Origin: Rhynchopus sp. YZ270_cl-10
Taxonomy: Eukaryota
Direction of reading: 5' to 3'
Length of the DNA: 64,000 nucleotides
NCBI GenBank assembly: GCA_964035575.1
Contig: OZ037839.1
Coordinates: 1,612,001 to 1,676,000, forward strand
Shown in pieces: positions 1 to 37,362 of this stretch. Each line of letters begins with the position of its first letter. Within the stretch, counting starts at the first letter, position 1. The notes below the pieces were generated by a model that ran no database searches, had not been told where the DNA came from, and worked only from the letters and a program-made list of their open reading frames with translations. Made by a program: the position numbers and the translations under genes.

Positions 1-3000
1 CCTGTATTTTACTAGGGATTTTCCCTTAGTAAAATACAGGGGAATTATCTAACACCTCGTCCCGAGTTTTTGTCCGAGAATGCGATTACTAATTAGTTAC
101 TCCACTAATTAAATCGAGCAAAAATATGGTGAACTCAGCGGAGCCCGGTTTTAAAAGTGCCAAAAACGACCTTTTCGTTTTGACGCGTTGTGAGTTCCTC
201 AAATGCAATTTTGAAGGGTAAAAAATTCGGGTTTTCTAAGCACATGCAGTGCTAAGTTAAAAAAAATCGCGAAAAAAAAATACAAAAATTTTGTGTTGGA
301 AGCTCGGAACCCAGAAACGTCCAATGGTGAAGTTTTTTTCTGGTTTCGTTGCACCCTGTATTTTTACTTAAAAATCAAGACAAAGTGATTTTTACCTGGA
401 TTTTTGCCTGTATTTTACTAGGGATTTTCCCTTAGTAAAATACAGGGGAATTATCTAACACCTCGTCCCGAGTTTTTGTCCGAGAATGCGATTACTAATT
501 AGTTACTCCACTAATTAAATCGAGCAAAAATATGGTGAACTCAGCGGAGCCCGGTTTTAAAAGTGCCAAAAACGACCTTTTCGTTTTGACGCGTTGTGAG
601 TTCCTCAAATGCAATTTTGAAGGGTAAAAAATTCGGGTTTTCTAAGCACATGCAGTGCTAAGTTAAAAAAAATCGCGAAAAAAAAATACAAAAATTTTGT
701 GTTGGAAGCTCGGAACCCAGAAACGTCCAATGGTGAAGTTTTTTTCTGGTTTCGTTGCACCCTGTATTTTTACTTAAAAATCAAGACAAAGTGATTTTTA
801 CCTGGATTTTTGCCTGTATTTTACTAGGGATTTTCCCTTAGTAAAATACAGGGGAATTATCTAACACCTCGTCCCGAGTTTTTGTCCGAGAATGCGATTA
901 CTAATTAGTTACTCCACTAATTAAATCGAGCAAAAATATGGTGAACTCAGCGGAGCCCGGTTTTAAAAGTGCCAAAAACGACCTTTTCGTTTTGACGCGT
1001 TGTGAGTTCCTCAAATGCAATTTTGAAGGGTAAAAAATTCGGGTTTTCTAAGCACATGCAGTGCTAAGTTAAAAAAAATCGCGAAAAAAAAATACAAAAA
1101 TTTTGTGTTGGAAGCTCGGAACCCAGAAACGTCCAATGGTGAAGTTTTTTTCTGGTTTCGTTGCACCCTGTATTTTTACTTAAAAATCAAGACAAAGTGA
1201 TTTTTACCTGGATTTTTGCCTGTATTTTACTAGGGATTTTCCCTTAGTAAAATACAGGGGAATTATCTAACACCTCGTCCCGAGTTTTTGTCCGAGAATG
1301 CGATTACTAATTAGTTACTCCACTAATTAAATCGAGCAAAAATATGGTGAACTCAGCGGAGCCCGGTTTTAAAAGTGCCAAAAACGACCTTTTCGTTTTG
1401 ACGCGTTGTGAGTTCCTCAAATGCAATTTTGAAGGGTAAAAAATTCGGGTTTTCTAAGCACATGCAGTGCTAAGTTAAAAAAAATCGCGAAAAAAAAATA
1501 CAAAAATTTTGTGTTGGAAGCTCGGAACCCAGAAACGTCCAATGGTGAAGTTTTTTTCTGGTTTCGTTGCACCCTGTATTTTTACTTAAAAATCAAGACA
1601 AAGTGATTTTTACCTGGATTTTTGCCTGTATTTTACTAGGGATTTTCCCTTAGTAAAATACAGGGGAATTATCTAACACCTCGTCCCGAGTTTTTGTCCG
1701 AGAATGCGATTACTAATTAGTTACTCCACTAATTAAATCGAGCAAAAATATGGTGAACTCAGCGGAGCCCGGTTTTAAAAGTGCCAAAAACGACCTTTTC
1801 GTTTTGACGCGTTGTGAGTTCCTCAAATGCAATTTTGAAGGGTAAAAAATTCGGGTTTTCTAAGCACATGCAGTGCTAAGTTAAAAAAAATCGCGAAAAA
1901 AAAATACAAAAATTTTGTGTTGGAAGCTCGGAACCCAGAAACGTCCAATGGTGAAGTTTTTTTCTGGTTTCGTTGCACCCTGTATTTTTACTTAAAAATC
2001 AAGACAAAGTGATTTTTACCTGGATTTTTGCCTGTATTTTACTAGGGATTTTCCCTTAGTAAAATACAGGGGAATTATCTAACACCTCGTCCCGAGTTTT
2101 TGTCCGAGAATGCGATTACTAATTAGTTACTCCACTAATTAAATCGAGCAAAAATATGGTGAACTCAGCGGAGCCCGGTTTTAAAAGTGCCAAAAACGAC
2201 CTTTTCGTTTTGACGCGTTGTGAGTTCCTCAAATGCAATTTTGAAGGGTAAAAAATTCGGGTTTTCTAAGCACATGCAGTGCTAAGTTAAAAAAAATCGC
2301 GAAAAAAAAATACAAAAATTTTGTGTTGGAAGCTCGGAACCCAGAAACGTCCAATGGTGAAGTTTTTTTCTGGTTTCGTTGCACCCTGTATTTTTACTTA
2401 AAAATCAAGACAAAGTGATTTTTACCTGGATTTTTGCCTGTATTTTACTAGGGATTTTCCCTTAGTAAAATACAGGGGAATTATCTAACACCTCGTCCCG
2501 AGTTTTTGTCCGAGAATGCGATTACTAATTAGTTACTCCACTAATTAAATCGAGCAAAAATATGGTGAACTCAGCGGAGCCCGGTTTTAAAAGTGCCAAA
2601 AACGACCTTTTCGTTTTGACGCGTTGTGAGTTCCTCAAATGCAATTTTGAAGGGTAAAAAATTCGGGTTTTCTAAGCACATGCAGTGCTAAGTTAAAAAA
2701 AATCGCGAAAAAAAAATACAAAAATTTTGTGTTGGAAGCTCGGAACCCAGAAACGTCCAATGGTGAAGTTTTTTTCTGGTTTCGTTGCACCCTGTATTTT
2801 TACTTAAAAATCAAGACAAAGTGATTTTTACCTGGATTTTTGCCTGTATTTTACTAGGGATTTTCCCTTAGTAAAATACAGGGGAATTATCTAACACCTC
2901 GTCCCGAGTTTTTGTCCGAGAATGCGATTACTAATTAGTTACTCCACTAATTAAATCGAGCAAAAATATGGTGAACTCAGCGGAGCCCGGTTTTAAAAGT

Positions 3001-6000
3001 GCCAAAAACGACCTTTTCGTTTTGACGCGTTGTGAGTTCCTCAAATGCAATTTTGAAGGGTAAAAAATTCGGGTTTTCTAAGCACATGCAGTGCTAAGTT
3101 AAAAAAAATCGCGAAAAAAAAATACAAAAATTTTGTGTTGGAAGCTCGGAACCCAGAAACGTCCAATGGTGAAGTTTTTTTCTGGTTTCGTTGCACCCTG
3201 TATTTTTACTTAAAAATCAAGACAAAGTGATTTTTACCTGGATTTTTGCCTGTATTTTACTAGGGATTTTCCCTTAGTAAAATACAGGGGAATTATCTAA
3301 CACCTCGTCCCGAGTTTTTGTCCGAGAATGCGATTACTAATTAGTTACTCCACTAATTAAATCGAGCAAAAATATGGTGAACTCAGCGGAGCCCGGTTTT
3401 AAAAGTGCCAAAAACGACCTTTTCGTTTTGACGCGTTGTGAGTTCCTCAAATGCAATTTTGAAGGGTAAAAAATTCGGGTTTTCTAAGCACATGCAGTGC
3501 TAAGTTAAAAAAAATCGCGAAAAAAAAATACAAAAATTTTGTGTTGGAAGCTCGGAACCCAGAAACGTCCAATGGTGAAGTTTTTTTCTGGTTTCGTTGC
3601 ACCCTGTATTTTTACTTAAAAATCAAGACAAAGTGATTTTTACCTGGATTTTTGCCTGTATTTTACTAGGGATTTTCCCTTAGTAAAATACAGGGGAATT
3701 ATCTAACACCTCGTCCCGAGTTTTTGTCCGAGAATGCGATTACTAATTAGTTACTCCACTAATTAAATCGAGCAAAAATATGGTGAACTCAGCGGAGCCC
3801 GGTTTTAAAAGTGCCAAAAACGACCTTTTCGTTTTGACGCGTTGTGAGTTCCTCAAATGCAATTTTGAAGGGTAAAAAATTCGGGTTTTCTAAGCACATG
3901 CAGTGCTAAGTTAAAAAAAATCGCGAAAAAAAAATACAAAAATTTTGTGTTGGAAGCTCGGAACCCAGAAACGTCCAATGGTGAAGTTTTTTTCTGGTTT
4001 CGTTGCACCCTGTATTTTTACTTAAAAATCAAGACAAAGTGATTTTTACCTGGATTTTTGCCTGTATTTTACTAGGGATTTTCCCTTAGTAAAATACAGG
4101 GGAATTATCTAACACCTCGTCCCGAGTTTTTGTCCGAGAATGCGATTACTAATTAGTTACTCCACTAATTAAATCGAGCAAAAATATGGTGAACTCAGCG
4201 GAGCCCGGTTTTAAAAGTGCCAAAAACGACCTTTTCGTTTTGACGCGTTGTGAGTTCCTCAAATGCAATTTTGAAGGGTAAAAAATTCGGGTTTTCTAAG
4301 CACATGCAGTGCTAAGTTAAAAAAAATCGCGAAAAAAAAATACAAAAATTTTGTGTTGGAAGCTCGGAACCCAGAAACGTCCAATGGTGAAGTTTTTTTC
4401 TGGTTTCGTTGCACCCTGTATTTTTACTTAAAAATCAAGACAAAGTGATTTTTACCTGGATTTTTGCCTGTATTTTACTAGGGATTTTCCCTTAGTAAAA
4501 TACAGGGGAATTATCTAACACCTCGTCCCGAGTTTTTGTCCGAGAATGCGATTACTAATTAGTTACTCCACTAATTAAATCGAGCAAAAATATGGTGAAC
4601 TCAGCGGAGCCCGGTTTTAAAAGTGCCAAAAACGACCTTTTCGTTTTGACGCGTTGTGAGTTCCTCAAATGCAATTTTGAAGGGTAAAAAATTCGGGTTT
4701 TCTAAGCACATGCAGTGCTAAGTTAAAAAAAATCGCGAAAAAAAAATACAAAAATTTTGTGTTGGAAGCTCGGAACCCAGAAACGTCCAATGGTGAAGTT
4801 TTTTTCTGGTTTCGTTGCACCCTGTATTTTTACTTAAAAATCAAGACAAAGTGATTTTTACCTGGATTTTTGCCTGTATTTTACTAGGGATTTTCCCTTA
4901 GTAAAATACAGGGGAATTATCTAACACCTCGTCCCGAGTTTTTGTCCGAGAATGCGATTACTAATTAGTTACTCCACTAATTAAATCGAGCAAAAATATG
5001 GTGAACTCAGCGGAGCCCGGTTTTAAAAGTGCCAAAAACGACCTTTTCGTTTTGACGCGTTGTGAGTTCCTCAAATGCAATTTTGAAGGGTAAAAAATTC
5101 GGGTTTTCTAAGCACATGCAGTGCTAAGTTAAAAAAAATCGCGAAAAAAAAATACAAAAATTTTGTGTTGGAAGCTCGGAACCCAGAAACGTCCAATGGT
5201 GAAGTTTTTTTCTGGTTTCGTTGCACCCTGTATTTTTACTTAAAAATCAAGACAAAGTGATTTTTACCTGGATTTTTGCCTGTATTTTACTAGGGATTTT
5301 CCCTTAGTAAAATACAGGGGAATTATCTAACACCTCGTCCCGAGTTTTTGTCCGAGAATGCGATTACTAATTAGTTACTCCACTAATTAAATCGAGCAAA
5401 AATATGGTGAACTCAGCGGAGCCCGGTTTTAAAAGTGCCAAAAACGACCTTTTCGTTTTGACGCGTTGTGAGTTCCTCAAATGCAATTTTGAAGGGTAAA
5501 AAATTCGGGTTTTCTAAGCACATGCAGTGCTAAGTTAAAAAAAATCGCGAAAAAAAAATACAAAAATTTTGTGTTGGAAGCTCGGAACCCAGAAACGTCC
5601 AATGGTGAAGTTTTTTTCTGGTTTCGTTGCACCCTGTATTTTTACTTAAAAATCAAGACAAAGTGATTTTTACCTGGATTTTTGCCTGTATTTTACTAGG
5701 GATTTTCCCTTAGTAAAATACAGGGGAATTATCTAACACCTCGTCCCGAGTTTTTGTCCGAGAATGCGATTACTAATTAGTTACTCCACTAATTAAATCG
5801 AGCAAAAATATGGTGAACTCAGCGGAGCCCGGTTTTAAAAGTGCCAAAAACGACCTTTTCGTTTTGACGCGTTGTGAGTTCCTCAAATGCAATTTTGAAG
5901 GGTAAAAAATTCGGGTTTTCTAAGCACATGCAGTGCTAAGTTAAAAAAAATCGCGAAAAAAAAATACAAAAATTTTGTGTTGGAAGCTCGGAACCCAGAA

Positions 6001-9000
6001 ACGTCCAATGGTGAAGTTTTTTTCTGGTTTCGTTGCACCCTGTATTTTTACTTAAAAATCAAGACAAAGTGATTTTTACCTGGATTTTTGCCTGTATTTT
6101 ACTAGGGATTTTCCCTTAGTAAAATACAGGGGAATTATCTAACACCTCGTCCCGAGTTTTTGTCCGAGAATGCGATTACTAATTAGTTACTCCACTAATT
6201 AAATCGAGCAAAAATATGGTGAACTCAGCGGAGCCCGGTTTTAAAAGTGCCAAAAACGACCTTTTCGTTTTGACGCGTTGTGAGTTCCTCAAATGCAATT
6301 TTGAAGGGTAAAAAATTCGGGTTTTCTAAGCACATGCAGTGCTAAGTTAAAAAAAATCGCGAAAAAAAAATACAAAAATTTTGTGTTGGAAGCTCGGAAC
6401 CCAGAAACGTCCAATGGTGAAGTTTTTTTCTGGTTTCGTTGCACCCTGTATTTTTACTTAAAAATCAAGACAAAGTGATTTTTACCTGGATTTTTGCCTG
6501 TATTTTACTAGGGATTTTCCCTTAGTAAAATACAGGGGAATTATCTAACACCTCGTCCCGAGTTTTTGTCCGAGAATGCGATTACTAATTAGTTACTCCA
6601 CTAATTAAATCGAGCAAAAATATGGTGAACTCAGCGGAGCCCGGTTTTAAAAGTGCCAAAAACGACCTTTTCGTTTTGACGCGTTGTGAGTTCCTCAAAT
6701 GCAATTTTGAAGGGTAAAAAATTCGGGTTTTCTAAGCACATGCAGTGCTAAGTTAAAAAAAAATCGCGAAAAAAAAATACAAAAATTTTGTGTTGGAAGC
6801 TCGGAACCCAGAAACGTCCAATGGTGAAGTTTTTTTCTGGTTTCGTTGCACCCTGTATTTTTACTTAAAAATCAAGACAAAGTGATTTTTACCTGGATTT
6901 TTGCCTGTATTTTACTAGGGATTTTCCCTTAGTAAAATACAGGGGAATTATCTAACACCTCGTCCCGAGTTTTTGTCCGAGAATGCGATTACTAATTAGT
7001 TACTCCACTAATTAAATCGAGCAAAAATATGGTGAACTCAGCGGAGCCCGGTTTTAAAAGTGCCAAAAACGACCTTTTCGTTTTGACGCGTTGTGAGTTC
7101 CTCAAATGCAATTTTGAAGGGTAAAAAATTCGGGTTTTCTAAGCACATGCAGTGCTAAGTTAAAAAAAATCGCGAAAAAAAAATACAAAAATTTTGTGTT
7201 GGAAGCTCGGAACCCAGAAACGTCCAATGGTGAAGTTTTTTTCTGGTTTCGTTGCACCCTGTATTTTTACTTAAAAATCAAGACAAAGTGATTTTTACCT
7301 GGATTTTTGCCTGTATTTTACTAGGGATTTTCCCTTAGTAAAATACAGGGGAATTATCTAACACCTCGTCCCGAGTTTTTGTCCGAGAATGCGATTACTA
7401 ATTAGTTACTCCACTAATTAAATCGAGCAAAAATATGGTGAACTCAGCGGAGCCCGGTTTTAAAAGTGCCAAAAACGACCTTTTCGTTTTGACGCGTTGT
7501 GAGTTCCTCAAATGCAATTTTGAAGGGTAAAAAATTCGGGTTTTCTAAGCACATGCAGTGCTAAGTTAAAAAAAATCGCGAAAAAAAAATACAAAAATTT
7601 TGTGTTGGAAGCTCGGAACCAGAAACGTCCAATGGTGAAGTTTTTTTCTGGTTTCGTTGCACCCTGTATTTTTACTTAAAAATCAAGACAAAGTGATTTT
7701 TACCTGGATTTTTGCCTGTATTTTACTAGGGATTTTCCCTTAGTAAAATACAGGGGAATTATCTAACACCTCGTCCCGAGTTTTTGTCCGAGAATGCGAT
7801 TACTAATTAGTTACTCCACTAATTAAATCGAGCAAAAATATGGTGAACTCAGCGGAGCCCGGTTTTAAAAGTGCCAAAAACGACCTTTTCGTTTTGACGC
7901 GTTGTGAGTTCCTCAAATGCAATTTTGAAGGGTAAAAAATTCGGGTTTTCTAAGCACATGCAGTGCTAAGTTAAAAAAAATCGCGAAAAAAAAATACAAA
8001 AATTTTGTGTTGGAAGCTCGGAACCCAGAAACGTCCAATGGTGAAGTTTTTTTCTGGTTTCGTTGCACCCTGTATTTTTACTTAAAAATCAAGACAAAGT
8101 GATTTTTACCTGGATTTTTGCCTGTATTTTACTAGGGATTTTCCCTTAGTAAAATACAGGGGAATTATCTAACACCTCGTCCCGAGTTTTTGTCCGAGAA
8201 TGCGATTACTAATTAGTTACTCCACTAATTAAATCGAGCAAAAATATGGTGAACTCAGCGGAGCCCGGTTTTAAAAGTGCCAAAAACGACCTTTTCGTTT
8301 TGACGCGTTGTGAGTTCCTCAAATGCAATTTTGAAGGGTAAAAAATTCGGGTTTTCTAAGCACATGCAGTGCTAAGTTAAAAAAAATCGCGAAAAAAAAA
8401 TACAAAAATTTTGTGTTGGAAGCTCGGAACCCAGAAACGTCCAATGGTGAAGTTTTTTTCTGGTTTCGTTGCACCCTGTATTTTTACTTAAAAATCAAGA
8501 CAAAGTGATTTTTACCTGGATTTTTGCCTGTATTTTACTAGGGATTTTCCCTTAGTAAAATACAGGGGAATTATCTAACACCTCGTCCCGAGTTTTTGTC
8601 CGAGAATGCGATTACTAATTAGTTACTCCACTAATTAAATCGAGCAAAAATATGGTGAACTCAGCGGAGCCCGGTTTTAAAAGTGCCAAAAACGACCTTT
8701 TCGTTTTGACGCGTTGTGAGTTCCTCAAATGCAATTTTGAAGGGTAAAAAATTCGGGTTTTCTAAGCACATGCAGTGCTAAGTTAAAAAAAATCGCGAAA
8801 AAAAAATACAAAAATTTTGTGTTGGAAGCTCGGAACCCAGAAACGTCCAATGGTGAAGTTTTTTTCTGGTTTCGTTGCACCCTGTATTTTTACTTAAAAA
8901 TCAAGACAAAGTGATTTTTACCTGGATTTTTGCCTGTATTTTACTAGGGATTTTCCCTTAGTAAAATACAGGGGAATTATCTAACACCTCGTCCCGAGTT

Positions 9001-10457
9001 TTTGTCCGAGAATGCGATTACTAATTAGTTACTCCACTAATTAAATCGAGCAAAAATATGGTGAACTCAGCGGAGCCCGGTTTTAAAAGTGCCAAAAACG
9101 ACCTTTTCGTTTTGACGCGTTGTGAGTTCCTCAAATGCAATTTTGAAGGGTAAAAAATTCGGGTTTTCTAAGCACATGCAGTGCTAAGTTAAAAAAAATC
9201 GCGAAAAAAAAATACAAAAATTTTGTGTTGGAAGCTCGGAACCCAGAAACGTCCAATGGTGAAGTTTTTTTCTGGTTTCGTTGCACCCTGTATTTTTACT
9301 TAAAAATCAAGACAAAGTGATTTTTACCTGGATTTTTGCCTGTATTTTACTAGGGATTTTCCCTTAGTAAAATACAGGGGAATTATCTAACACCTCGTCC
9401 CGAGTTTTTGTCCGAGAATGCGATTACTAATTAGTTACTCCACTAATTAAATCGAGCAAAAATATGGTGAACTCAGCGGAGCCCGGTTTTAAAAGTGCCA
9501 AAAACGACCTTTTCGTTTTGACGCGTTGTGAGTTCCTCAAATGCAATTTTGAAGGGTAAAAAATTCGGGTTTTCTAAGCACATGCAGTGCTAAGTTAAAA
9601 AAAATCGCGAAAAAAAAATACAAAAATTTTGTGTTGGAAGCTCGGAACCCAGAAACGTCCAATGGTGAAGTTTTTTTCTGGTTTCGTTGCACCCTGTATT
9701 TTTACTTAAAAATCAAGACAAAGTGATTTTTACCTGGATTTTTGCCTGTATTTTACTAGGGATTTTCCCTTAGTAAAATACAGGGGAATTATCTAACACC
9801 TCGTCCCGAGTTTTTGTCCGAGAATGCGATTACTAATTAGTTACTCCACTAATTAAATCGAGCAAAAATATGGTGAACTCAGCGGAGCCCGGTTTTAAAA
9901 GTGCCAAAAACGACCTTTTCGTTTTGACGCGTTGTGAGTTCCTCAAATGCAATTTTGAAGGGTAAAAAATTCGGGTTTTCTAAGCACATGCAGTGCTAAG
10001 TTAAAAAAAATCGCGAAAAAAAAATACAAAAATTTTGTGTTGGAAGCTCGGAACCCAGAAACGTCCAATGGTGAAGTTTTTTTCTGGTTTCGTTGCACCC
10101 TGTATTTTTACTTAAAAATCAAGACAAAGTGATTTTTACCTGGATTTTTGCCTGTATTTTACTAGGGATTTTCCCTTAGTAAAATACAGGGGAATTATCT
10201 AACACCTCGTCCCGAGTTTTTGTCCGAGAATGCGATTACTAATTAGTTACTCCACTANNNNNNNNNNNNNNNNNNNNNNNNNNNNNNNNNNNNNNNNNNN
10301 NNNNNNNNNNNNNNNNNNNNNNNNNNNNNNNNNNNNNNNNNNNNNNNNNNNNNNNNNNNNNNNNNNNNNNNNNNNNNNNNNNNNNNNNNNNNNNNNNNNN
10401 NNNNNNNNNNNNNNNNNNNNNNNNNNNNNNNNNNNNNNNNNNNNNNNNNNNNNNNNN

Positions 10458-10512
<55 letters not shown>

Positions 10513-22500: not shown

Positions 22501-25500
22501 GAGTTCCTCAAATGCAATTTTGAAGGGTAAAAAATTCGGGTTTTCTAAGCACATGCAGTGCTAAGTTAAAAAAAATCGCGAAAAAAAAATACAAAAATTT
22601 TGTGTTGGAAGCTCGGAACCCAGAAACGTCCAATGGTGAAGTTTTTTTCTGGTTTCGTTGCACCCTGTATTTTTACTTAAAAATCAAGACAAAGTGATTT
22701 TTACCTGGATTTTTGCCTGTATTTTACTAGGGATTTTCCCTTAGTAAAATACAGGGGAATTATCTAACACCTCGTCCCGAGTTTTTGTCCGAGAATGCGA
22801 TTACTAATTAGTTACTCCACTAATTAAATCGAGCAAAAATATGGTGAACTCAGCGGAGCCCGGTTTTAAAAGTGCCAAAAACGACCTTTTCGTTTTGACG
22901 CGTTGTGAGTTCCTCAAATGCAATTTTGAAGGGTAAAAAATTCGGGTTTTCTAAGCACATGCAGTGCTAAGTTAAAAAAAATCGCGAAAAAAAAATACAA
23001 AAATTTTGTGTTGGAAGCTCGGAACCCAGAAACGTCCAATGGTGAAGTTTTTTTCTGGTTTCGTTGCACCCTGTATTTTTACTTAAAAATCAAGACAAAG
23101 TGATTTTTACCTGGATTTTTGCCTGTATTTTACTAGGGATTTTCCCTTAGTAAAATACAGGGGAATTATCTAACACCTCGTCCCGAGTTTTTGTCCGAGA
23201 ATGCGATTACTAATTAGTTACTCCACTAATTAAATCGAGCAAAAATATGGTGAACTCAGCGGAGCCCGGTTTTAAAAGTGCCAAAAACGACCTTTTCGTT
23301 TTGACGCGTTGTGAGTTCCTCAAATGCAATTTTGAAGGGTAAAAAATTCGGGTTTTCTAAGCACATGCAGTGCTAAGTTAAAAAAAATCGCGAAAAAAAA
23401 ATACAAAAATTTTGTGTTGGAAGCTCGGAACCCAGAAACGTCCAATGGTGAAGTTTTTTTCTGGTTTCGTTGCACCCTGTATTTTTACTTAAAAATCAAG
23501 ACAAAGTGATTTTTACCTGGATTTTTGCCTGTATTTTACTAGGGATTTTCCCTTAGTAAAATACAGGGGAATTATCTAACACCTCGTCCCGAGTTTTTGT
23601 CCGAGAATGCGATTACTAATTAGTTACTCCACTAATTAAATCGAGCAAAAATATGGTGAACTCAGCGGAGCCCGGTTTTAAAAGTGCCAAAAACGACCTT
23701 TTCGTTTTGACGCGTTGTGAGTTCCTCAAATGCAATTTTGAAGGGTAAAAAATTCGGGTTTTCTAAGCACATGCAGTGCTAAGTTAAAAAAAATCGCGAA
23801 AAAAAAATACAAAAATTTTGTGTTGGAAGCTCGGAACCCAGAAACGTCCAATGGTGAAGTTTTTTTCTGGTTTCGTTGCACCCTGTATTTTTACTTAAAA
23901 ATCAAGACAAAGTGATTTTTACCTGGATTTTTGCCTGTATTTTACTAGGGATTTTCCCTTAGTAAAATACAGGGGAATTATCTAACACCTCGTCCCGAGT
24001 TTTTGTCCGAGAATGCGATTACTAATTAGTTACTCCACTAATTAAATCGAGCAAAAATATGGTGAACTCAGCGGAGCCCGGTTTTAAAAGTGCCAAAAAC
24101 GACCTTTTCGTTTTGACGCGTTGTGAGTTCCTCAAATGCAATTTTGAAGGGTAAAAAATTCGGGTTTTCTAAGCACATGCAGTGCTAAGTTAAAAAAAAT
24201 CGCGAAAAAAAAATACAAAAATTTTGTGTTGGAAGCTCGGAACCCAGAAACGTCCAATGGTGAAGTTTTTTTCTGGTTTCGTTGCACCCTGTATTTTTAC
24301 TTAAAAATCAAGACAAAGTGATTTTTACCTGGATTTTTGCCTGTATTTTACTAGGGATTTTCCCTTAGTAAAATACAGGGGAATTATCTAACACCTCGTC
24401 CCGAGTTTTTGTCCGAGAATGCGATTACTAATTAGTTACTCCACTAATTAAATCGAGCAAAAATATGGTGAACTCAGCGGAGCCCGGTTTTAAAAGTGCC
24501 AAAAACGACCTTTTCGTTTTGACGCGTTGTGAGTTCCTCAAATGCAATTTTGAAGGGTAAAAAATTCGGGTTTTCTAAGCACATGCAGTGCTAAGTTAAA
24601 AAAAATCGCGAAAAAAAAATACAAAAATTTTGTGTTGGAAGCTCGGAACCCAGAAACGTCCAATGGTGAAGTTTTTTTCTGGTTTCGTTGCACCCTGTAT
24701 TTTTACTTAAAAATCAAGACAAAGTGATTTTTACCTGGATTTTTGCCTGTATTTTACTAGGGATTTTCCCTTAGTAAAATACAGGGGAATTATCTAACAC
24801 CTCGTCCCGAGTTTTTGTCCGAGAATGCGATTACTAATTAGTTACTCCACTAATTAAATCGAGCAAAAATATGGTGAACTCAGCGGAGCCCGGTTTTAAA
24901 AGTGCCAAAAACGACCTTTTCGTTTTGACGCGTTGTGAGTTCCTCAAATGCAATTTTGAAGGGTAAAAAATTCGGGTTTTCTAAGCACATGCAGTGCTAA
25001 GTTAAAAAAAATCGCGAAAAAAAAATACAAAAATTTTGTGTTGGAAGCTCGGAACCCAGAAACGTCCAATGGTGAAGTTTTTTTCTGGTTTCGTTGCACC
25101 CTGTATTTTTACTTAAAAATCAAGACAAAGTGATTTTTACCTGGATTTTTGCCTGTATTTTACTAGGGATTTTCCCTTAGTAAAATACAGGGGAATTATC
25201 TAACACCTCGTCCCGAGTTTTTGTCCGAGAATGCGATTACTAATTAGTTACTCCACTAATTAAATCGAGCAAAAATATGGTGAACTCAGCGGAGCCCGGT
25301 TTTAAAAGTGCCAAAAACGACCTTTTCGTTTTGACGCGTTGTGAGTTCCTCAAATGCAATTTTGAAGGGTAAAAAATTCGGGTTTTCTAAGCACATGCAG
25401 TGCTAAGTTAAAAAAAATCGCGAAAAAAAAATACAAAAATTTTGTGTTGGAAGCTCGGAACCCAGAAACGTCCAATGGTGAAGTTTTTTTCTGGTTTCGT

Positions 25501-28500
25501 TGCACCCTGTATTTTTACTTAAAAATCAAGACAAAGTGATTTTTACCTGGATTTTTGCCTGTATTTTACTAGGGATTTTCCCTTAGTAAAATACAGGGGA
25601 ATTATCTAACACCTCGTCCCGAGTTTTTGTCCGAGAATGCGATTACTAATTAGTTACTCCACTAATTAAATCGAGCAAAAATATGGTGAACTCAGCGGAG
25701 CCCGGTTTTAAAAGTGCCAAAAACGACCTTTTCGTTTTGACGCGTTGTGAGTTCCTCAAATGCAATTTTGAAGGGTAAAAAATTCGGGTTTTCTAAGCAC
25801 ATGCAGTGCTAAGTTAAAAAAAATCGCGAAAAAAAAATACAAAAATTTTGTGTTGGAAGCTCGGAACCCAGAAACGTCCAATGGTGAAGTTTTTTTCTGG
25901 TTTCGTTGCACCCTGTATTTTTACTTAAAAATCAAGACAAAGTGATTTTTACCTGGATTTTTGCCTGTATTTTACTAGGGATTTTCCCTTAGTAAAATAC
26001 AGGGGAATTATCTAACACCTCGTCCCGAGTTTTTGTCCGAGAATGCGATTACTAATTAGTTACTCCACTAATTAAATCGAGCAAAAATATGGTGAACTCA
26101 GCGGAGCCCGGTTTTAAAAGTGCCAAAAACGACCTTTTCGTTTTGACGCGTTGTGAGTTCCTCAAATGCAATTTTGAAGGGTAAAAAATTCGGGTTTTCT
26201 AAGCACATGCAGTGCTAAGTTAAAAAAAATCGCGAAAAAAAAATACAAAAATTTTGTGTTGGAAGCTCGGAACCCAGAAACGTCCAATGGTGAAGTTTTT
26301 TTCTGGTTTCGTTGCACCCTGTATTTTTACTTAAAAATCAAGACAAAGTGATTTTTACCTGGATTTTTGCCTGTATTTTACTAGGGATTTTCCCTTAGTA
26401 AAATACAGGGGAATTATCTAACACCTCGTCCCGAGTTTTTGTCCGAGAATGCGATTACTAATTAGTTACTCCACTAATTAAATCGAGCAAAAATATGGTG
26501 AACTCAGCGGAGCCCGGTTTTAAAAGTGCCAAAAACGACCTTTTCGTTTTGACGCGTTGTGAGTTCCTCAAATGCAATTTTGAAGGGTAAAAAATTCGGG
26601 TTTTCTAAGCACATGCAGTGCTAAGTTAAAAAAAATCGCGAAAAAAAAATACAAAAATTTTGTGTTGGAAGCTCGGAACCCAGAAACGTCCAATGGTGAA
26701 GTTTTTTTCTGGTTTCGTTGCACCCTGTATTTTTACTTAAAAATCAAGACAAAGTGATTTTTACCTGGATTTTTGCCTGTATTTTACTAGGGATTTTCCC
26801 TTAGTAAAATACAGGGGAATTATCTAACACCTCGTCCCGAGTTTTTGTCCGAGAATGCGATTACTAATTAGTTACTCCACTAATTAAATCGAGCAAAAAT
26901 ATGGTGAACTCAGCGGAGCCCGGTTTTAAAAGTGCCAAAAACGACCTTTTCGTTTTGACGCGTTGTGAGTTCCTCAAATGCAATTTTGAAGGGTAAAAAA
27001 TTCGGGTTTTCTAAGCACATGCAGTGCTAAGTTAAAAAAAATCGCGAAAAAAAAATACAAAAATTTTGTGTTGGAAGCTCGGAACCCAGAAACGTCCAAT
27101 GGTGAAGTTTTTTTCTGGTTTCGTTGCACCCTGTATTTTTACTTAAAAATCAAGACAAAGTGATTTTTACCTGGATTTTTGCCTGTATTTTACTAGGGAT
27201 TTTCCCTTAGTAAAATACAGGGGAATTATCTAACACCTCGTCCCGAGTTTTTGTCCGAGAATGCGATTACTAATTAGTTACTCCACTAATTAAATCGAGC
27301 AAAAATATGGTGAACTCAGCGGAGCCCGGTTTTAAAAGTGCCAAAAACGACCTTTTCGTTTTGACGCGTTGTGAGTTCCTCAAATGCAATTTTGAAGGGT
27401 AAAAAATTCGGGTTTTCTAAGCACATGCAGTGCTAAGTTAAAAAAAATCGCGAAAAAAAAATACAAAAATTTTGTGTTGGAAGCTCGGAACCCAGAAACG
27501 TCCAATGGTGAAGTTTTTTTCTGGTTTCGTTGCACCCTGTATTTTTACTTAAAAATCAAGACAAAGTGATTTTTACCTGGATTTTTGCCTGTATTTTACT
27601 AGGGATTTTCCCTTAGTAAAATACAGGGGAATTATCTAACACCTCGTCCCGAGTTTTTGTCCGAGAATGCGATTACTAATTAGTTACTCCACTAATTAAA
27701 TCGAGCAAAAATATGGTGAACTCAGCGGAGCCCGGTTTTAAAAGTGCCAAAAACGACCTTTTCGTTTTGACGCGTTGTGAGTTCCTCAAATGCAATTTTG
27801 AAGGGTAAAAAATTCGGGTTTTCTAAGCACATGCAGTGCTAAGTTAAAAAAAATCGCGAAAAAAAAATACAAAAATTTTGTGTTGGAAGCTCGGAACCCA
27901 GAAACGTCCAATGGTGAAGTTTTTTTCTGGTTTCGTTGCACCCTGTATTTTTACTTAAAAATCAAGACAAAGTGATTTTTACCTGGATTTTTGCCTGTAT
28001 TTTACTAGGGATTTTCCCTTAGTAAAATACAGGGGAATTATCTAACACCTCGTCCCGAGTTTTTGTCCGAGAATGCGATTACTAATTAGTTACTCCACTA
28101 ATTAAATCGAGCAAAAATATGGTGAACTCAGCGGAGCCCGGTTTTAAAAGTGCCAAAAACGACCTTTTCGTTTTGACGCGTTGTGAGTTCCTCAAATGCA
28201 ATTTTGAAGGGTAAAAAATTCGGGTTTTCTAAGCACATGCAGTGCTAAGTTAAAAAAAATCGCGAAAAAAAAATACAAAAATTTTGTGTTGGAAGCTCGG
28301 AACCCAGAAACGTCCAATGGTGAAGTTTTTTTCTGGTTTCGTTGCACCCTGTATTTTTACTTAAAAATCAAGACAAAGTGATTTTTACCTGGATTTTTGC
28401 CTGTATTTTACTAGGGATTTTCCCTTAGTAAAATACAGGGGAATTATCTAACACCTCGTCCCGAGTTTTTGTCCGAGAATGCGATTACTAATTAGTTACT

Positions 28501-31500
28501 CCACTAATTAAATCGAGCAAAAATATGGTGAACTCAGCGGAGCCCGGTTTTAAAAGTGCCAAAAACGACCTTTTCGTTTTGACGCGTTGTGAGTTCCTCA
28601 AATGCAATTTTGAAGGGTAAAAAATTCGGGTTTTCTAAGCACATGCAGTGCTAAGTTAAAAAAAATCGCGAAAAAAAAATACAAAAATTTTGTGTTGGAA
28701 GCTCGGAACCCAGAAACGTCCAATGGTGAAGTTTTTTTCTGGTTTCGTTGCACCCTGTATTTTTACTTAAAAATCAAGACAAAGTGATTTTTACCTGGAT
28801 TTTTGCCTGTATTTTACTAGGGATTTTCCCTTAGTAAAATACAGGGGAATTATCTAACACCTCGTCCCGAGTTTTTGTCCGAGAATGCGATTACTAATTA
28901 GTTACTCCACTAATTAAATCGAGCAAAAATATGGTGAACTCAGCGGAGCCCGGTTTTAAAAGTGCCAAAAACGACCTTTTCGTTTTGACGCGTTGTGAGT
29001 TCCTCAAATGCAATTTTGAAGGGTAAAAAATTCGGGTTTTCTAAGCACATGCAGTGCTAAGTTAAAAAAAATCGCGAAAAAAAAATACAAAAATTTTGTG
29101 TTGGAAGCTCGGAACCCAGAAACGTCCAATGGTGAAGTTTTTTTCTGGTTTCGTTGCACCCTGTATTTTTACTTAAAAATCAAGACAAAGTGATTTTTAC
29201 CTGGATTTTTGCCTGTATTTTACTAGGGATTTTCCCTTAGTAAAATACAGGGGAATTATCTAACACCTCGTCCCGAGTTTTTGTCCGAGAATGCGATTAC
29301 TAATTAGTTACTCCACTAATTAAATCGAGCAAAAATATGGTGAACTCAGCGGAGCCCGGTTTTAAAAGTGCCAAAAACGACCTTTTCGTTTTGACGCGTT
29401 GTGAGTTCCTCAAATGCAATTTTGAAGGGTAAAAAATTCGGGTTTTCTAAGCACATGCAGTGCTAAGTTAAAAAAAATCGCGAAAAAAAAATACAAAAAT
29501 TTTGTGTTGGAAGCTCGGAACCCAGAAACGTCCAATGGTGAAGTTTTTTTCTGGTTTCGTTGCACCCTGTATTTTTACTTAAAAATCAAGACAAAGTGAT
29601 TTTTACCTGGATTTTTGCCTGTATTTTACTAGGGATTTTCCCTTAGTAAAATACAGGGGAATTATCTAACACCTCGTCCCGAGTTTTTGTCCGAGAATGC
29701 GATTACTAATTAGTTACTCCACTAATTAAATCGAGCAAAAATATGGTGAACTCAGCGGAGCCCGGTTTTAAAAGTGCCAAAAACGACCTTTTCGTTTTGA
29801 CGCGTTGTGAGTTCCTCAAATGCAATTTTGAAGGGTAAAAAATTCGGGTTTTCTAAGCACATGCAGTGCTAAGTTAAAAAAAATCGCGAAAAAAAAATAC
29901 AAAAATTTTGTGTTGGAAGCTCGGAACCCAGAAACGTCCAATGGTGAAGTTTTTTTCTGGTTTCGTTGCACCCTGTATTTTTACTTAAAAATCAAGACAA
30001 AGTGATTTTTACCTGGATTTTTGCCTGTATTTTACTAGGGATTTTCCCTTAGTAAAATACAGGGGAATTATCTAACACCTCGTCCCGAGTTTTTGTCCGA
30101 GAATGCGATTACTAATTAGTTACTCCACTAATTAAATCGAGCAAAAATATGGTGAACTCAGCGGAGCCCGGTTTCAAAAGTGCCAAAAACGACCTTTTCG
30201 TTTTGACGCGTTGTGAGTTCCTCAAATGCAATTTTGAAGGGTAAAAAATTCGGGTTTTCTAAGCACATGCAGTGCTAAGTTAAAAAAAATCGCGAAAAAA
30301 AAATACAAAAATTTTGTGTTGGAAGCTCGGAACCCAGAAACGTCCAATGGTGAAGTTTTTTTCTGGTTTCGTTGCACCCTGTATTTTTACTTAAAAATCA
30401 AGACAAAGTGATTTTTACCTGGATTTTTGCCTGTATTTTACTAGGGATTTTCCCTTAGTAAAATACAGGGGAATTATCTAACACCTCGTCCCGAGTTTTT
30501 GTCCGAGAATGCGATTACTAATTAGTTACTCCACTAATTAAATCGAGCAAAAATATGGTGAACTCAGCGGAGCCCGGTTTTAAAAGTGCCAAAAACGACC
30601 TTTTCGTTTTGACGCGTTGTGAGTTCCTCAAATGCAATTTTGAAGGGTAAAAAATTCGGGTTTTCTAAGCACATGCAGTGCTAAGTTAAAAAAAATCGCG
30701 AAAAAAAAATACAAAAATTTTGTGTTGGAAGCTCGGAACCCAGAAACGTCCAATGGTGAAGTTTTTTTCTGGTTTCGTTGCACCCTGTATTTTTACTTAA
30801 AAATCAAGACAAAGTGATTTTTACCTGGATTTTTGCCTGTATTTTACTAGGGATTTTCCCTTAGTAAAATACAGGGGAATTATCTAACACCTCGTCCCGA
30901 GTTTTTGTCCGAGAATGCGATTACTAATTAGTTACTCCACTAATTAAATCGAGCAAAAATATGGTGAACTCAGCGGAGCCCGGTTTTAAAAGTGCCAAAA
31001 ACGACCTTTTCGTTTTGACGCGTTGTGAGTTCCTCAAATGCAATTTTGAAGGGTAAAAAATTCGGGTTTTCTAAGCACATGCAGTGCTAAGTTAAAAAAA
31101 ATCGCGAAAAAAAAATACAAAAATTTTGTGTTGGAAGCTCGGAACCCAGAAACGTCCAATGGTGAAGTTTTTTTCTGGTTTCGTTGCACCCTGTATTTTT
31201 ACTTAAAAATCAAGACAAAGTGATTTTTACCTGGATTTTTGCCTGTATTTTACTAGGGATTTTCCCTTAGTAAAATACAGGGGAATTATCTAACACCTCG
31301 TCCCGAGTTTTTGTCCGAGAATGCGATTACTAATTAGTTACTCCACTAATTAAATCGAGCAAAAATATGGTGAACTCAGCGGAGCCCGGTTTTAAAAGTG
31401 CCAAAAACGACCTTTTCGTTTTGACGCGTTGTGAGTTCCTCAAATGCAATTTTGAAGGGTAAAAAATTCGGGTTTTCTAAGCACATGCAGTGCTAAGTTA

Positions 31501-33947
31501 AAAAAAATCGCGAAAAAAAAATACAAAAATTTTGTGTTGGAAGCTCGGAACCCAGAAACGTCCAATGGTGAAGTTTTTTTCTGGTTTCGTTGCACCCTGT
31601 ATTTTTACTTAAAAATCAAGACAAAGTGATTTTTACCTGGATTTTTGCCTGTATTTTACTAGGGATTTTCCCTTAGTAAAATACAGGGGAATTATCTAAC
31701 ACCTCGTCCCGAGTTTTTGTCCGAGAATGCGATTACTAATTAGTTACTCCACTAATTAAATCGAGCAAAAATATGGTGAACTCAGCGGAGCCCGGTTTTA
31801 AAAGTGCCAAAAACGACCTTTTCGTTTTGACGCGTTGTGAGTTCCTCAAATGCAATTTTGAAGGGTAAAAAATTCGGGTTTTCTAAGCACATGCAGTGCT
31901 AAGTTAAAAAAAATCGCGAAAAAAAAATACAAAAATTTTGTGTTGGAAGCTCGGAACCCAGAAACGTCCAATGGTGAAGTTTTTTTCTGGTTTCGTTGCA
32001 CCCTGTATTTTTACTTAAAAATCAAGACAAAGTGATTTTTACCTGGATTTTTGCCTGTATTTTACTAGGGATTTTCCCTTAGTAAAATACAGGGGAATTA
32101 TCTAACACCTCGTCCCGAGTTTTTGTCCGAGAATGCGATTACTAATTAGTTACTCCACTAATTAAATCGAGCAAAAATATGGTGAACTCAGCGGAGCCCG
32201 GTTTTAAAAGTGCCAAAAACGACCTTTTCGTTTTGACGCGTTGTGAGTTCCTCAAATGCAATTTTGAAGGGTAAAAAATTCGGGTTTTCTAAGCACATGC
32301 AGTGCTAAGTTAAAAAAAATCGCGAAAAAAAAATACAAAAATTTTGTGTTGGAAGCTCGGAACCCAGAAACGTCCAATGGTGAAGTTTTTTTCTGGTTTC
32401 GTTGCACCCTGTATTTTTACTTAAAAATCAAGACAAAGTGATTTTTACCTGGATTTTTGCCTGTATTTTACTAGGGATTTTCCCTTAGTAAAATACAGGG
32501 GAATTATCTAACACCTCGTCCCGAGTTTTTGTCCGAGAATGCGATTACTAATTAGTTACTCCACTAATTAAATCGAGCAAAAATATGGTGAACTCAGCGG
32601 AGCCCGGTTTTAAAAGTGCCAAAAACGACCTTTTCGTTTTGACGCGTTGTGAGTTCCTCAAATGCAATTTTGAAGGGTAAAAAATTCGGGTTTTCTAAGC
32701 ACATGCAGTGCTAAGTTAAAAAAAATCGCGAAAAAAAAATACAAAAATTTTGTGTTGGAAGCTCGGAACCCAGAAACGTCCAATGGTGAAGTTTTTTTCT
32801 GGTTTCGTTGCACCCTGTATTTTTACTTAAAAATCAAGACAAAGTGATTTTTACCTGGATTTTTGCCTGTATTTTACTAGGGATTTTCCCTTAGTAAAAT
32901 ACAGGGGAATTATCTAACACCTCGTCCCGAGTTTTTGTCCGAGAATGCGATTACTAATTAGTTACTCCACTAATTAAATCGAGCAAAAATATGGTGAACT
33001 CAGCGGAGCCCGGTTTTAAAAGTGCCAAAAACGACCTTTTCGTTTTGACGCGTTGTGAGTTCCTCAAATGCAATTTTGAAGGGTAAAAAATTCGGGTTTT
33101 CTAAGCACATGCAGTGCTAAGTTAAAAAAAATCGCGAAAAAAAAATACAAAAATTTTGTGTTGGAAGCTCGGAACCCAGAAACGTCCAATGGTGAAGTTT
33201 TTTTCTGGTTTCGTTGCACCCTGTATTTTTACTTAAAAATCAAGACAAAGTGATTTTTACCTGGATTTTTGCCTGTATTTTACTAGGGATTTTCCCTTAG
33301 TAAAATACAGGGGAATTATCTAACACCTCGTCCCGAGTTTTTGTCCGAGAATGCGATTACTAATTAGTTACTCCACTAATTAAATCGAGCAAAAATATGG
33401 TGAACTCAGCGGAGCCCGGTTTTAAAAGTGCCAAAAACGACCTTTTCGTTTTGACGCGTTGTGAGTTCCTCAAATGCAATTTTGAAGGGTAAAAAATTCG
33501 GGTTTTCTAAGCACATGCAGTGCTAAGTTAAAAAAAATCGCGAAAAAAAAATACAAAAATTTTGTGTTGGAAGCTCGGAACCCAGAAACGTCCAATGGTG
33601 AAGTTTTTTTCTGGTTTCGTTGCACCCTGTATTTTTACTTAAAAATCAAGACAAAGTGATTTTTACCTGGATTTTTGCCTGTATTTTACTAGGGATTTTC
33701 CCTTAGTAAAATACAGGGGAATTATCTAACACCTCGTCCCGAGTTTTTGTCCGAGAATGCGATTACTAATTAGTTACTCCACTAATTAAATCGAGCAAAA
33801 ATATGGTGAACTCAGCGGAGCCCGGTTTTAAAAGTGCCAAAAACGACCTTTTCGTTTTGACGCGTTGTGAGTTCCTCAAATGCAATTTTGAAGGGTAAAA
33901 AATTCGGGTTTTCTAAGCACATGCAGTGCTAAGTTAAAAAAAATCGC
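1..33947. repeat. 406-bp tandem satellite, ~83 units in window (starts before window), near-identical copies
   Basis: CCTGTATTTTACTAGGG recurs at 1, 407, 813 and onward. Differences seen are almost all homopolymer indels (mainly 10458-13320) plus one T>C at 30175. The array stops at ...AAATCGC 33947. Confidence 0.99.
10258..10457. other. Assembly gap (200 N) inside the satellite, followed by a probably artefactual poly(A) run
   Basis: 200 N, then an A-run at 10458-10509 replacing the AAAAA of the unit. Indel noise is concentrated in the units just after the gap. Confidence 0.97.
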
Positions 33948-34034
33948 TGGGGGGCTCCGCCCCCCAGACCCCCCAGTCGCTTCGCGGCTAAGGGCTGGGC
34001 TAAGCCTGCCCTTCGCCGCGAAGCGCCTGGGGGG
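33947..34034. other. Two adjacent GC-rich hairpins at the satellite boundary
   Basis: CTGGGGGGC-tcc-GCCCCCCAG (33947-33967), followed by nested stems CCCCCCAG/CTGGGGGG, CGCTTCGCGGC/GCCGCGAAGCG and AAGGGC/GCCCTT (33969-34034). Confidence 0.85.
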
Positions 34035-34595
34035 ATGTGGTGTGTAGCATTACAATGTGCAATGATTGCAGTCGTGAAGTATCTGGAGTTACACCGTTGT
34101 GAGGCGTGGAACCTCACAACTTTCCTCTCGTGAGCGACAGAGGTGTGAGTCGTTGCATCACAACACCGTAGAGGTCGTATTTGTACCTTCTTTGCGACAC
34201 TCGTGACCTATCGCTATCGCGAGGGAGGCTCATTTTATTTACTGTGCGACGCTGCTGATTTCGACACGTTGCCGAAGAAGCGATCGCGCTCTCTTCCTAT
34301 TGCGCTCTCTCTGTGTGATTTTGTGTATCCCAAAAGGAGTAATTACCCGAAACATTTTGCCTAAACGTGTGAACGTTGTGAACCTGGAGTCGCTAGCAGA
34401 CAGGAAAAAGAGGATGGGCAGGCAGCGTCTGCCCGACCTGTGTGAAGTGAATAAGTGATTACCTGACAGATGTCTGGGTATCCGTGTGTTCTGTGTGGGT
34501 ATCCATGTCCGGAGTATGTCCCATTGTCCCCCCACCCCCACCAATTGCAAAAAACCGTGAGGGTGCACGATGGCCCATGGACCACCACGTCCTAG

Positions 34596-34785
34596 TTACC
34601 ACCTATGACTAGTCATATGACAAGGTGGATGGCCAGTTACATGACAAGACTAACTAAAGACAAGACCCCTGTATGTAATGAGTGGCGTTAGGCCTTGTCA
34701 TTTGACAGGGGTCTTGTCATTATTTAATCTTGTCATGTAACTAGTCATACCCCTTGTCATTGCTCATACTCGGTTGTGGTGTAAC
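34596..34785. repeat. ~190-bp imperfect foldback built from ATGACAAG/CTTGTCAT motifs
   Basis: AGTTACATGACAAGA/TCTTGTCATGTAACT, GACAAGACCCCTGT/ACAGGGGTCTTGTC and ATGACAAGG/CCTTGTCAT are nested symmetrically around ~34690. Confidence 0.8.
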
Positions 34786-34939
34786 GTACCCTTTGGGGGA
34801 GCACCCCAAATACACGACGGTGAAGTAAACGACATGACATTGTGCTTTACATGTAATTTTTTTTACATGTAAACCACATGTCATTTTATATGTAGTGATT
34901 TTTGTCTGAGGAGATTAGCCTCTGCATATTTTTGTCCAG

Positions 34940-35221
34940 CTGTACTGTACTGTACTGTACTGTACTGTACTGTACTGTACTGTACTGTACTGTACTGTAC
35001 TGTACTGTACTGTACTGTACTGTACTGTACTGTACTGTACTGTACTGTACTGTACTGTACTGTACTGTACTGTACTGTACTGTACTGTACTGTACTGTAC
35101 TGTACTGTACTGTACTGTACTGTACTGTACTGTACTGTACTGTACTGTACTGTACTGTACTGTACTGTACTGTACTGTACTGTACTGTACTGTACTGTAC
35201 TGTACTGTACTGTACTGTACT
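34940..35221. repeat. (CTGTA)n microsatellite, ~56 copies
   Basis: Perfect 5-bp period. Confidence 0.98.
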
Positions 35222-35230
35222 CCCAATCCC

Positions 35231-35517
35231 CTGTGTATACTGTGTATACTGTGTATACTGTGTATACTGTGTATACTGTGTATACTGTGTATACTGTGTA
35301 TACTGTGTATACTGTGTATACTGTGTATACTGTGTATACTGTGTATACTGTGTATACTGTGTATACTGTGTATACTGTGTATACTGTGTATACTGTGTAT
35401 ACTGTGTATACTGTGTATACTGTGTATACTGTGTATACTGTGTATACTGTGTATACTGTGTATACTGTGTATACTGTGTATACTGTGTATACTGTGTATA
35501 CTGTGTATACTGTGTAT
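35231..35517. repeat. (CTGTGTATA)n microsatellite, ~32 copies
   Basis: Perfect 9-bp period, 9 bp downstream of the CTGTA tract. Confidence 0.98.
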
Positions 35518-35912
35518 GCTACCTGTGTGTGACCGTACCCCAGATGGTCTGAAGAGTGATCTGACCATATTCTCCAGGTACAATATATACCCGGAGAATC
35601 CATTGGAGCAAGAATTTTGCACTTTTGAGCACCACAGATTACATGTTGCCATTTTTGCGGTCATAATATTTTTGCAAATGGCAAAGGCAATCCTTAAGGA
35701 ATTACAGGGAAAACCACCGTTTTGGGTCTCTCTGTCTATGGGCGATTGGGTTTTAGTCACTCAACGAATCTGCTCGAATTTTTTTGTGTGTAGATAGGTT
35801 TTACCAGAAAAATCAATTAAAGCAAGAATTTTACGGTTTTGAATAGTTGTTCTTTATTTAAAAAAATACCCAGTTTGGACAAAAACTCAGGACCAAGTGT
35901 AAAAACGTTTAT

Positions 35913-37362
35913 CGAAGCGAGGTTGGCAACTGTGAAGGATCCTGAGGTGGCTTCTCTGCTTCTTCAGGCGGAGGTTGCGACTGTTATTCCGACCTCGTTC
36001 TTGAGCGAAGCATCGTTTACGAGACTTGATCTCTCTGCTGTGTCTGTTGTGACGCGAATTGAGCACGACTTCCTCTACGGGTGTGCGTCGGTGGAAACCG
36101 TTGACTTGTCGGCATTGTGCAACGTTACGCACATTGGGAATAACTGTCTCTCTTACAGCAAATCGTTGACAAGCCTTGACATGTCAGGGTTCACTGGTGT
36201 GACGGTGATACGGGAGTCGTTCCTCAAAGGAAGTGGCGTGACAGCGCTTGACTTATCCGCGATGACGAGTGTGACGGAGGTTGGTGCAGGCTTTCTTTAC
36301 TCCTGCAAGTCGTTGGAAAGGATTGACATCTCAGGATGGCGCAGAGTCACGCACATTGAGAAGGACTTCTTCACGAACTGCACCTCGTTGGCAACGATTG
36401 ATTTATCAGCTTTTTGCAGTGTCACCAATATCGGCTTCAGGTTTCTCTTCAACTGCAAGTCGTTGACCACCATCAGCTTTTCAGGGACGAATGTGACGGA
36501 AGTTGCGAGTCAATTTTGTAGGGCCTGCACCTCGTTGGAAACGATTGACTTGACAGCACTGCACAGAGTTGTGAAGGTAGGGTACAACTTTCTCTGGGGT
36601 TGCACCTCGCTGGGAAGTATCGACCTACCAGGTTTTGCATCCATCGGGCCCAACTTTCTTTTTCAGTGCACATCATTGAAAACAGTTGATTTATCAGTGT
36701 TGTGCAGCATCACGCACATTGAGCGTGGCTGGATGCAAGAGTGCTCCGCGTTGACAACAGCAGACTTCTCTGGACTGAGCAATGTTACGCAGATTGATGA
36801 ACGTTTCCTGCAAGATTGCACATCCTTGACTACGCTGGACATGTCAGGTTTTGGCAGGAATACAGAGATACAACACGACAGCCTGCTCAACTGCAACGCA
36901 CTCACAACAGTCGTCTTGCCAGGCAACATCGACATTGACGAGATGTTGTCTCTCCCGAATGGAGACCCTAGAATGAGCACCTACAAGGAGGCCTTCTATG
37001 TACGTGTGCGTGAGATTTACGCAAGGTTTACGGAACAGTTCGAAGATGTGCGGATAGAAGCTTTTGAGGCAGTACGAACAGACGTGTCTGGAGATGCAAG
37101 ACAATGTATTGCATTGAAAGCAGGACAAGAACGAGAGAAGGGATTGATGCAAGCACAAGAGGACAACAAAGAGGAACAAAAAGAGGATTTGGAGAGTTGG
37201 GGGCAGCATAAACAGGAGCAGGACAAGCTGGATGAACAGAGGGGTTTGGGGGTTTTGTGCAGTTATGTTACGAATACTTCAGTCATAATATTCAACTTCA
37301 GTTTTGGATACACCTGTAAGCTCCTGATAAGGGTCTTATTTACACTTTCTCTCGCAAGATGA
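35913..37362 (+). pseudogene. Ubl-LRR family copy A, 5'-truncated (Ubl domain missing), LRR frame still open
   Basis: Homology to the paralogues starts abruptly at CGAAGCGAGG (EARLAT). Upstream is TAAAAACGTTTAT plus the transposon end. About 13 BspA-type LRRs and the conserved EAFYVRVREIYARF tail. Confidence 0.75.

Follow-up and report, generated by a model that had tools for sequence, protein, structure and literature searches.

How one end of a likely DNA transposon can come to be reiterated in tandem while its opposite end is present once, and what kind of element could have supplied that end, is the question raised by the left part of the 64,000-nucleotide stretch of Rhynchopus sp. YZ270_cl-10 DNA analysed here (contig OZ037839.1; 'the window'). 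A 406-bp period in 83.7 copies was identified at 1-33947 by Tandem Repeats Finder, with the following features in the array and its last units:

1..33947, + strand: tandem array of the 406-bp unit, continuing past the window's left edge
10258..10509, no strand: assembly gap of 200 N (10258-10457), then an A52 run, followed by indel-rich units to about 13400
33324..33729, + strand: last full unit, 37% G+C, the reference sequence for 73 of the 83 units
33542..33729, + strand: 188-bp spacer half of the unit, without continuation in the element interior
33678..33717, + strand: hairpin with a 17-bp stem and a single bulged T; 12 nt separate its end from the unit junction, where the sequence is CTAA
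33727..33729, + strand: TAA, a TWA-type trinucleotide, as found ahead of each left 23-mer
33730..33752, + strand: innermost left terminal inverted repeat, 23 bp, starting with CAC
33730..33947, + strand: 218-bp left end of the element, constituting the element half of the unit

The array is real, and as satellite DNA of transposon origin it is a fairly ordinary variant. The initial annotation described a homogeneous satellite of more than 34 kb at 1..35902; the 406-bp tandem array was recovered, but it stops at 33947, and 33948-35899 is the non-tandem interior of an element. Homogeneity is high, with 73 of the 83 full units identical and a single clean substitution among the units (30175, T>C), the same one that had been spotted on first inspection. 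The visible array nevertheless amounts to 33.9 kb, with a gap of nominal size and a left start beyond the window, and because of the 200-N gap and the A52 run a homogeneous stretch exceeding 34 kb is not established as a single continuous tract. Identity differs by part, being complete for 23/25 units left of the gap, 1/7 just right of it and 49/50 further right; the seven units beside the gap differ mostly by single-base indels, as expected of a poorly covered contig end. Each full unit closes with TAA directly ahead of the next CAC-starting 23-mer, of which the array holds 84 (26 left of the gap, 58 right), correcting the earlier count of about 83 left ends while preserving the layout in which they face one right end.

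The last 23-mer copy opens a core of 2170 bp (2.17 kb; 33730-35899), which contains these further features:

33948..34034, + strand: two adjacent G+C-rich hairpins where the array stops
34617..34760, + strand: 56-bp internal inverted repeat, 88% complementary
34940..35517, + strand: microsatellites (CTGTA)56 and (CTGTGTATA)32 within the element
35877..35899, - strand: right terminal inverted repeat, 23 bp, ending GTG on the + strand, 20/23 against the left repeat

The inverted 20/23 counterpart, followed by TAA some 2 kb past the array, is thereby located at 35877-35899 as first reported, giving 23-bp repeats with 5'-CAC..GTG-3' termini, the left end being defined from the repeat only. Over the 1952 bases that follow the array, the chance of a 20/23 match to the left 23-mer is ∼5e-7, and when 25 resampled units were compared with the remainder of the window none attained 20/23 (best 17-19), so the inverted match exceeds chance; another 20/23 match to the left 23-mer, at about 57530-57553, is low-complexity and A-rich. 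No coding ORF was found in the core (33730-35899), its ORFs being microsatellite read-throughs or shorter than 120 aa, and a scan of metagenome contigs and viral contigs for the terminal-repeat pattern returned no match. A search of 33300-36000 against Rfam gave eight matches, all far below gathering scores and seven of them on the microsatellites, which were rejected. In runs X1-X3 (of four public runs, X1-X4, from three studies), 34388-34622 forms a second high-depth module of the core with many variants and alternative neighbours, and loose ends at 33820, 34032, 35856 and 35871, among those listed, suggest related elements sharing only parts; the element family looks modular.

The make-up of the unit itself is composite. 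The earlier description of the satellite as built from one transposon end holds for 218 of the unit's 406 bp, which demonstrably match the start (33730-33947) of the single complete-looking element, but not for the remaining 188 bp, which are absent from the core. Local alignment of the unit halves with the core, the 7.4-kb insert downstream and its 122-bp repeat yielded the terminal repeat, a single A-rich match and nothing else. Past ..AAAAAAATCGC the array end diverges cleanly, and no microhomology that could explain a first duplication was found there (33947). In contigs of the public runs the spacer (33542-33729) has the same depth as the rest of the unit; its sequence would derive from an old flank or the end of another repeat, probably an old flank. 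A spacer-interior joint of 33621 to 34644 in another copy, detected in two of the four runs with a shorter side of 18-30 letters, is weak, and would place the spacer inside the element rather than in its flank.

The right terminus was examined by aligning contigs of the four runs on 35760-35960, together with the flanking features of the window:

35900..35912, + strand: TAA and 10 bp of a host repeat end, common to the empty site at 58807-58819
35913..37362, + strand: 5'-truncated BspA-type LRR gene, the first of a tandem cluster
58787..58819, + strand: paralogous empty site, the right flank without the element, with target TTTT-TAA-AAAC

The right end of the window reads GTG|TAAAAAC, and other flanks read GTG|TAAAATA.. 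in X1 and GTG|TAAAAAA.. in X2 (among 21 of 26 loose ends listed), while a sister right end of conserved 23-bp length, present in all four runs, continues GTG|TTATTTT in X4. The four known right flanks all begin with TWA (three TAA and one TTA), although in X1 and X2 the contigs of the sister end break off right at GTG, where the next base may not always be T, and the window's own junction is unbridged by the contig pieces listed. The sequence following 35899 is found again at 58807, there lacking the element (96% over 199 bp) and with ..CCTATTTT in front of it, and this empty site is present in 4/4 runs. The three other flanks and the empty site fix the GTG end at 35877-35899 as a genuine terminus, with TWA next to it in all four flanks seen. 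A piggyBac-type TTAA duplication was rejected, the right flanks reading TAAA or TTAT.

The trinucleotide within the unit has a different standing. The initial annotation implied that the TAA of the unit is the target duplication of this insertion, which does not hold, since the left flanks differ: ..CCTATTTT stands before TAA in the empty paralog at 58807, whereas the unit reads ..GGAATTATC before TAA, i.e. ..GGAATTATCTAA before CAC. The unit TAA is best read as a relic of an older insertion junction carried within the array. The empty site carries one TAA and the outer left junction of the array lies beyond the window; from the flank, the outermost left end is predicted to follow ..CCTATTTTTAA, i.e. 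..GGTGTTCCATCCTATTTT-TAA and then CAC. Among the 24 of 321 loose ends listed for 33542-34939, none falls at 33727-33730 and none represents a dispersed left end with a different flank.

Terminal motifs of this kind are associated with several families. Chapaev elements are characterised by CAC..GTG ends together with duplications of 3-4 bp (PMC4079192), Chapaev3 elements having TWA between A (5') and T (3') (PMC4079192; PMC3014272), and CAC..GTG ends with 3-bp duplications are described for EnSpm as well (PMC12730594). The element resembles Chapaev3, as described in those sources, in its CAC..GTG ends, short terminal inverted repeats, TWA next to the end and non-coding derivative form. It differs in context, theirs being A-TWA-T and that seen here mostly T-TAA-A or A/T tracts: the A-TWA-T context is missing from three of the four right flanks, and likewise from the empty site and the unit junction, with A as the base 3' of TWA in three right flanks and T in one, and T (empty site) or C (unit junction) as the base 5' of TAA. 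It differs further in host (animals there, a diplonemid here), in having no transposase seen, and in the 84-fold reiteration of one end. A Chapaev3 would also be expected to have, in the element or in an autonomous partner, a DDE transposase with C(2)C, LH and H(4)H motifs. Of the proposed Chapaev3-type label, the CAC..GTG ends fit and the A..T context does not; with fitting ends, failing context and no transposase, the element behaves like a Chapaev3 derivative without being filed as one, and is likely a non-autonomous cut-and-paste, CMC-type, CAC..GTG DNA transposon, judging from its termini.

No direct precedent for a CMC, Chapaev or EnSpm element in diplonemids was found in the literature searched. 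The portion of the diplonemid genome paper drawn on here names TATE, MULE and Helitron only as DNA elements (PMC10161547); 'Chapaev' and 'CMC' gave no match in seven of its supplementary files, a set that lies outside the repeat section of Additional file 1, which may list the present repeat, and 'EnSpm' gave none in supplementary file 5. Trypanosomatids are described as being without class II elements in the part of the source consulted (PMC12278014), and excavates appear as minor hosts of DDE elements in the corresponding part of a broad survey (10.1101/2021.09.26.461848).

The spacer invites a different classification, as the hairpin at 33678-33717 followed by 12 nt ending in CTAA is reminiscent of a canonical Helitron 3' end. 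Under such a scheme, with the transposon ends kept as described, the spacer would be a live canonical Helitron 3' end, and rolling-circle read-through would have captured the adjoining 218 bp to make a 406-bp concatemer. The position of the hairpin, 12 nt before CTAA, is near that of the rule (a palindrome about 11 bp before CTRR; PMC4067079), Helitron-like ORFs have been reported from a diplonemid genome (PMC10161547), and rolling-circle tandem arrays have been described for truncated Helitrons (PMC12628747); the spacer hairpin, however, measures 40 nt overall against 16-20 nt for Helitron palindromes as given in the source, the base after CTAA is C rather than T, the unit is without a TC start, and the Helitron arrays covered in the relevant part of the review mostly combine many 5' ends with one 3' end (PMC12628747). 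No CTAA-ending spacer with another flank was present among the 24 of 321 loose ends listed, and scanning metagenome contigs for the spacer hairpin pattern gave no match. We regard this derivation of the array as unlikely.

Read on the minus strand, the same segment could instead be a non-autonomous Helentron (HINE), with its 5' end near 35900, then microsatellites, a 3' subterminal repeat and stem-loop, and a reiterated 3' end. On that strand the hairpin begins 12 nt after the 23-mer, in keeping with the Helentron stem-loop, and the empty site TTTTTAAAAA permits T|T insertion without duplication. HINE and DINE-1 elements share with this locus an end-near inverted repeat, microsatellites near one end, a tandem array, a hairpin and a T-rich target (PMC4067079; PMC7492417). 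They differ in that their subterminal repeats are of 11-15 bp and lie 2-4 nt from the 5' end, whereas here the repeat is of 23 bp and at the terminus itself, and in that their tandem repeats lie between the ends and exclude the subterminal repeat, which here stands within the tandem unit. Their insertions are, moreover, flanked by at least two T on each side, whereas the TWA flanks here include the sister flank, which is A-rich with a single T on the minus strand; of the four right flanks, three are T-rich and this one A-rich on that strand, the other end being outside the window. These mismatches with the published descriptions make a HINE quite unlikely, and a CMC-type element is the reading retained below.

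The tandem unit also occurs outside this assembly: the head-to-tail joint of 33947 to 33542 is present in 4/4 runs from three studies, and variant joints in these runs give units of 404 and 406 bp. Non-window alleles account for 74-100% of depth at 33743, 81-100% at 33786, 43-100% at 33759, and 28-100% at 33640 and 33648. With other alleles so common, the window locus represents one subfamily among several; its alleles at 33743 and 33786 are in the minority in all four runs, so that, if the runs are of the same strain, the locus has not simply been polished to the genome-wide majority. The A allele at 33743, position 14 of the terminal inverted repeat (74-100% of depth), is shared with the sister right end at its position 14, which would be expected if the two are linked and both ends of a subfamily change together; agreement between the two sister ends is no more than 18/23. 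Contig depth is no copy number and ratios of units to ends are rough, but the whole family in X4 shows ∼17-22 units per right end from single-contig depths, and window-type junction contigs are 11-33x deeper than window-type right-end contigs (X1, X3, X4). If X1 contigs of depth near 100 are single-copy, right ends would number some tens and units roughly a thousand, which makes the satellite a modest one.

These runs bear on the possibility that the unit is real but the length and homogeneity of the locus are mostly assembly products, generated by collapse, expansion or consensus polishing across the gap. The 200-N gap, the A52 run and the indel-rich neighbouring units are consistent with such artefacts, as is the span of the public-run contigs, each covering at most part of one unit; the head-to-tail joint in every run, the 11-33x excess of junction over right-end depth and the retention of minority alleles all argue against them, and we consider this explanation very unlikely.

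Beyond the right end, the array has genes for BspA-type LRR proteins, an ankyrin protein and a UCH protease as neighbours. An intron-free tandem gene cluster (35913-51379 and 58820-59989) encodes proteins that combine a ubiquitin-like N-terminal part with leucine-rich repeats of the BspA type, with six intact starts, additional 5'-truncated copies and hypervariable positions in the repeats; a 787-aa ankyrin-repeat ORF on a 300-bp tandem unit lies inside the cluster (42036-44399). One LRR gene is split by a 7.4-kb insert (51380-58819) with a 19-bp direct repeat of the gene at 51361-51379 and 58820-58838, on either side. Within the insert, a 122-bp unit is repeated in tandem 22.9 times (52013-54802), and an ORF of 729 aa (55095-57284) encodes a Q/P-rich tract as well as a UCH ubiquitin-protease domain (Pfam E 1.6e-44). 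The left junction of the insert is found also in runs X1 and X4, and the right end of a second copy is the target of the satellite-bearing element; given the recurrent junction and the second copy, the insert looks like a mobile repeat favouring one LRR-gene site. In X1 a loose end at 35932 has a different sequence following the LRR gene, one base beyond the 7.4-kb insert junction, which suggests that another type of insertion has used almost the same position. Further along, 60560-61495 encodes a 311-aa sugar phosphate isomerase/epimerase-like protein, relatives of which carry PF01261; its closest named relatives are from Rhynchopus euleeides (63%), Flectonema neradi (59%) and Lacrimia lanifica (58%), making a diplonemid host likely, with many bacterial or metagenomic matches at 30-40% identity beyond the diplonemids, and an old gene transfer is possible on these similarities.

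A centromeric or heterochromatic setting had also been proposed for the array. In favour of a functional centromeric satellite, the array is a long, homogeneous and A+T-rich tandem repeat, and the family has several variants; yet the array adjoins the LRR gene cluster through a nested insertion, the cluster starting 13 bp past the right end, and the rough depths would correspond to only about a thousand units in all. A centromere role, if true, would matter more than the other readings, diplonemid kinetochores being described as unresolved (10.1101/2024.08.06.606595), but nothing here speaks in its support and we judge it highly unlikely.

Satellites born of transposons are well documented, and the category is not new. 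Tetris/TIR-220 of Drosophila virilis (PMC4079207) is alike in being a non-autonomous inverted-repeat element, the end region of which has given rise to kb-size satellite arrays, and differs in that the TIR-220 repeats are internal to long foldback terminal inverted repeats, whereas here the whole terminal 23-mer, behind TWA, is amplified at one end. The miDNA4 and Xstir MITE-borne satellites of Xenopus (PMC12628747) likewise form variable-length arrays inside a non-autonomous DNA transposon, with units of internal or captured sequence, unlike the terminus itself as seen here, and tandem repeats have been reported inside Merlin elements (PMC8101967). Tandems of hobo, Bari1 and the P element formed by double insertion (PMC5932611) share the target-site motif beside a terminal repeat and expansion by unequal exchange; as described there, they are head-to-tail whole or end-deleted elements in which right meets left, in contrast to the present unit, which has no right end. 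The distinctive property of the Rhynchopus array is that its unit holds one complete terminus with a target-like trinucleotide, and no exact precedent for arrays of one transposon end was found in the literature searched.

The account that we favour, with moderate confidence, is that a non-autonomous CMC-type element duplicated an old junction (188 bp of flank, TAA and the 218-bp left end) and moved with it, unequal exchange then expanding and homogenising the unit. An ancestral copy would have inserted at the TAA closing the 188-bp stretch, which may be a Helitron-like repeat's CTAA end; the junction would have been duplicated once to give left end-flank-TAA-left end; and the outer end would have been used in later jumps, one of them into a TAA near the end of a 7.4-kb repeat in the LRR gene cluster. 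Recent unequal exchange or gene conversion would have expanded and homogenised the 406-bp unit. From the observed ends, flanks, empty site, unit make-up, and sister variants of the unit and right end, we infer the order of these events, the TWA duplication and the exchange mechanism.

As every unit carries an intact terminal repeat behind TWA, any left end could pair with the right end, and the satellite may be self-dispersing: a CMC-type transposase could use whichever of the 84 left ends together with the single right end, moving 2.17 kb plus multiples of 406 bp and seeding arrays at new loci. This is a tentative possibility which, if true, would involve a superfamily of cut-and-paste elements of which the literature searched gives no report from diplonemids.

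With TATE, MULE and Helitron only in the consulted part of the diplonemid genome paper (PMC10161547) and trypanosomatids described as lacking class II elements (PMC12278014), recent copies of a CMC-type family would add to the mobilome known from euglenozoans, and might be a sign of an active transposase. Tandems keeping intact terminal repeats are expected to be often cut and short-lived (PMC5932611); an array of 84 intact ends would show a satellite at a very young stage, and would put that expectation to a natural test.
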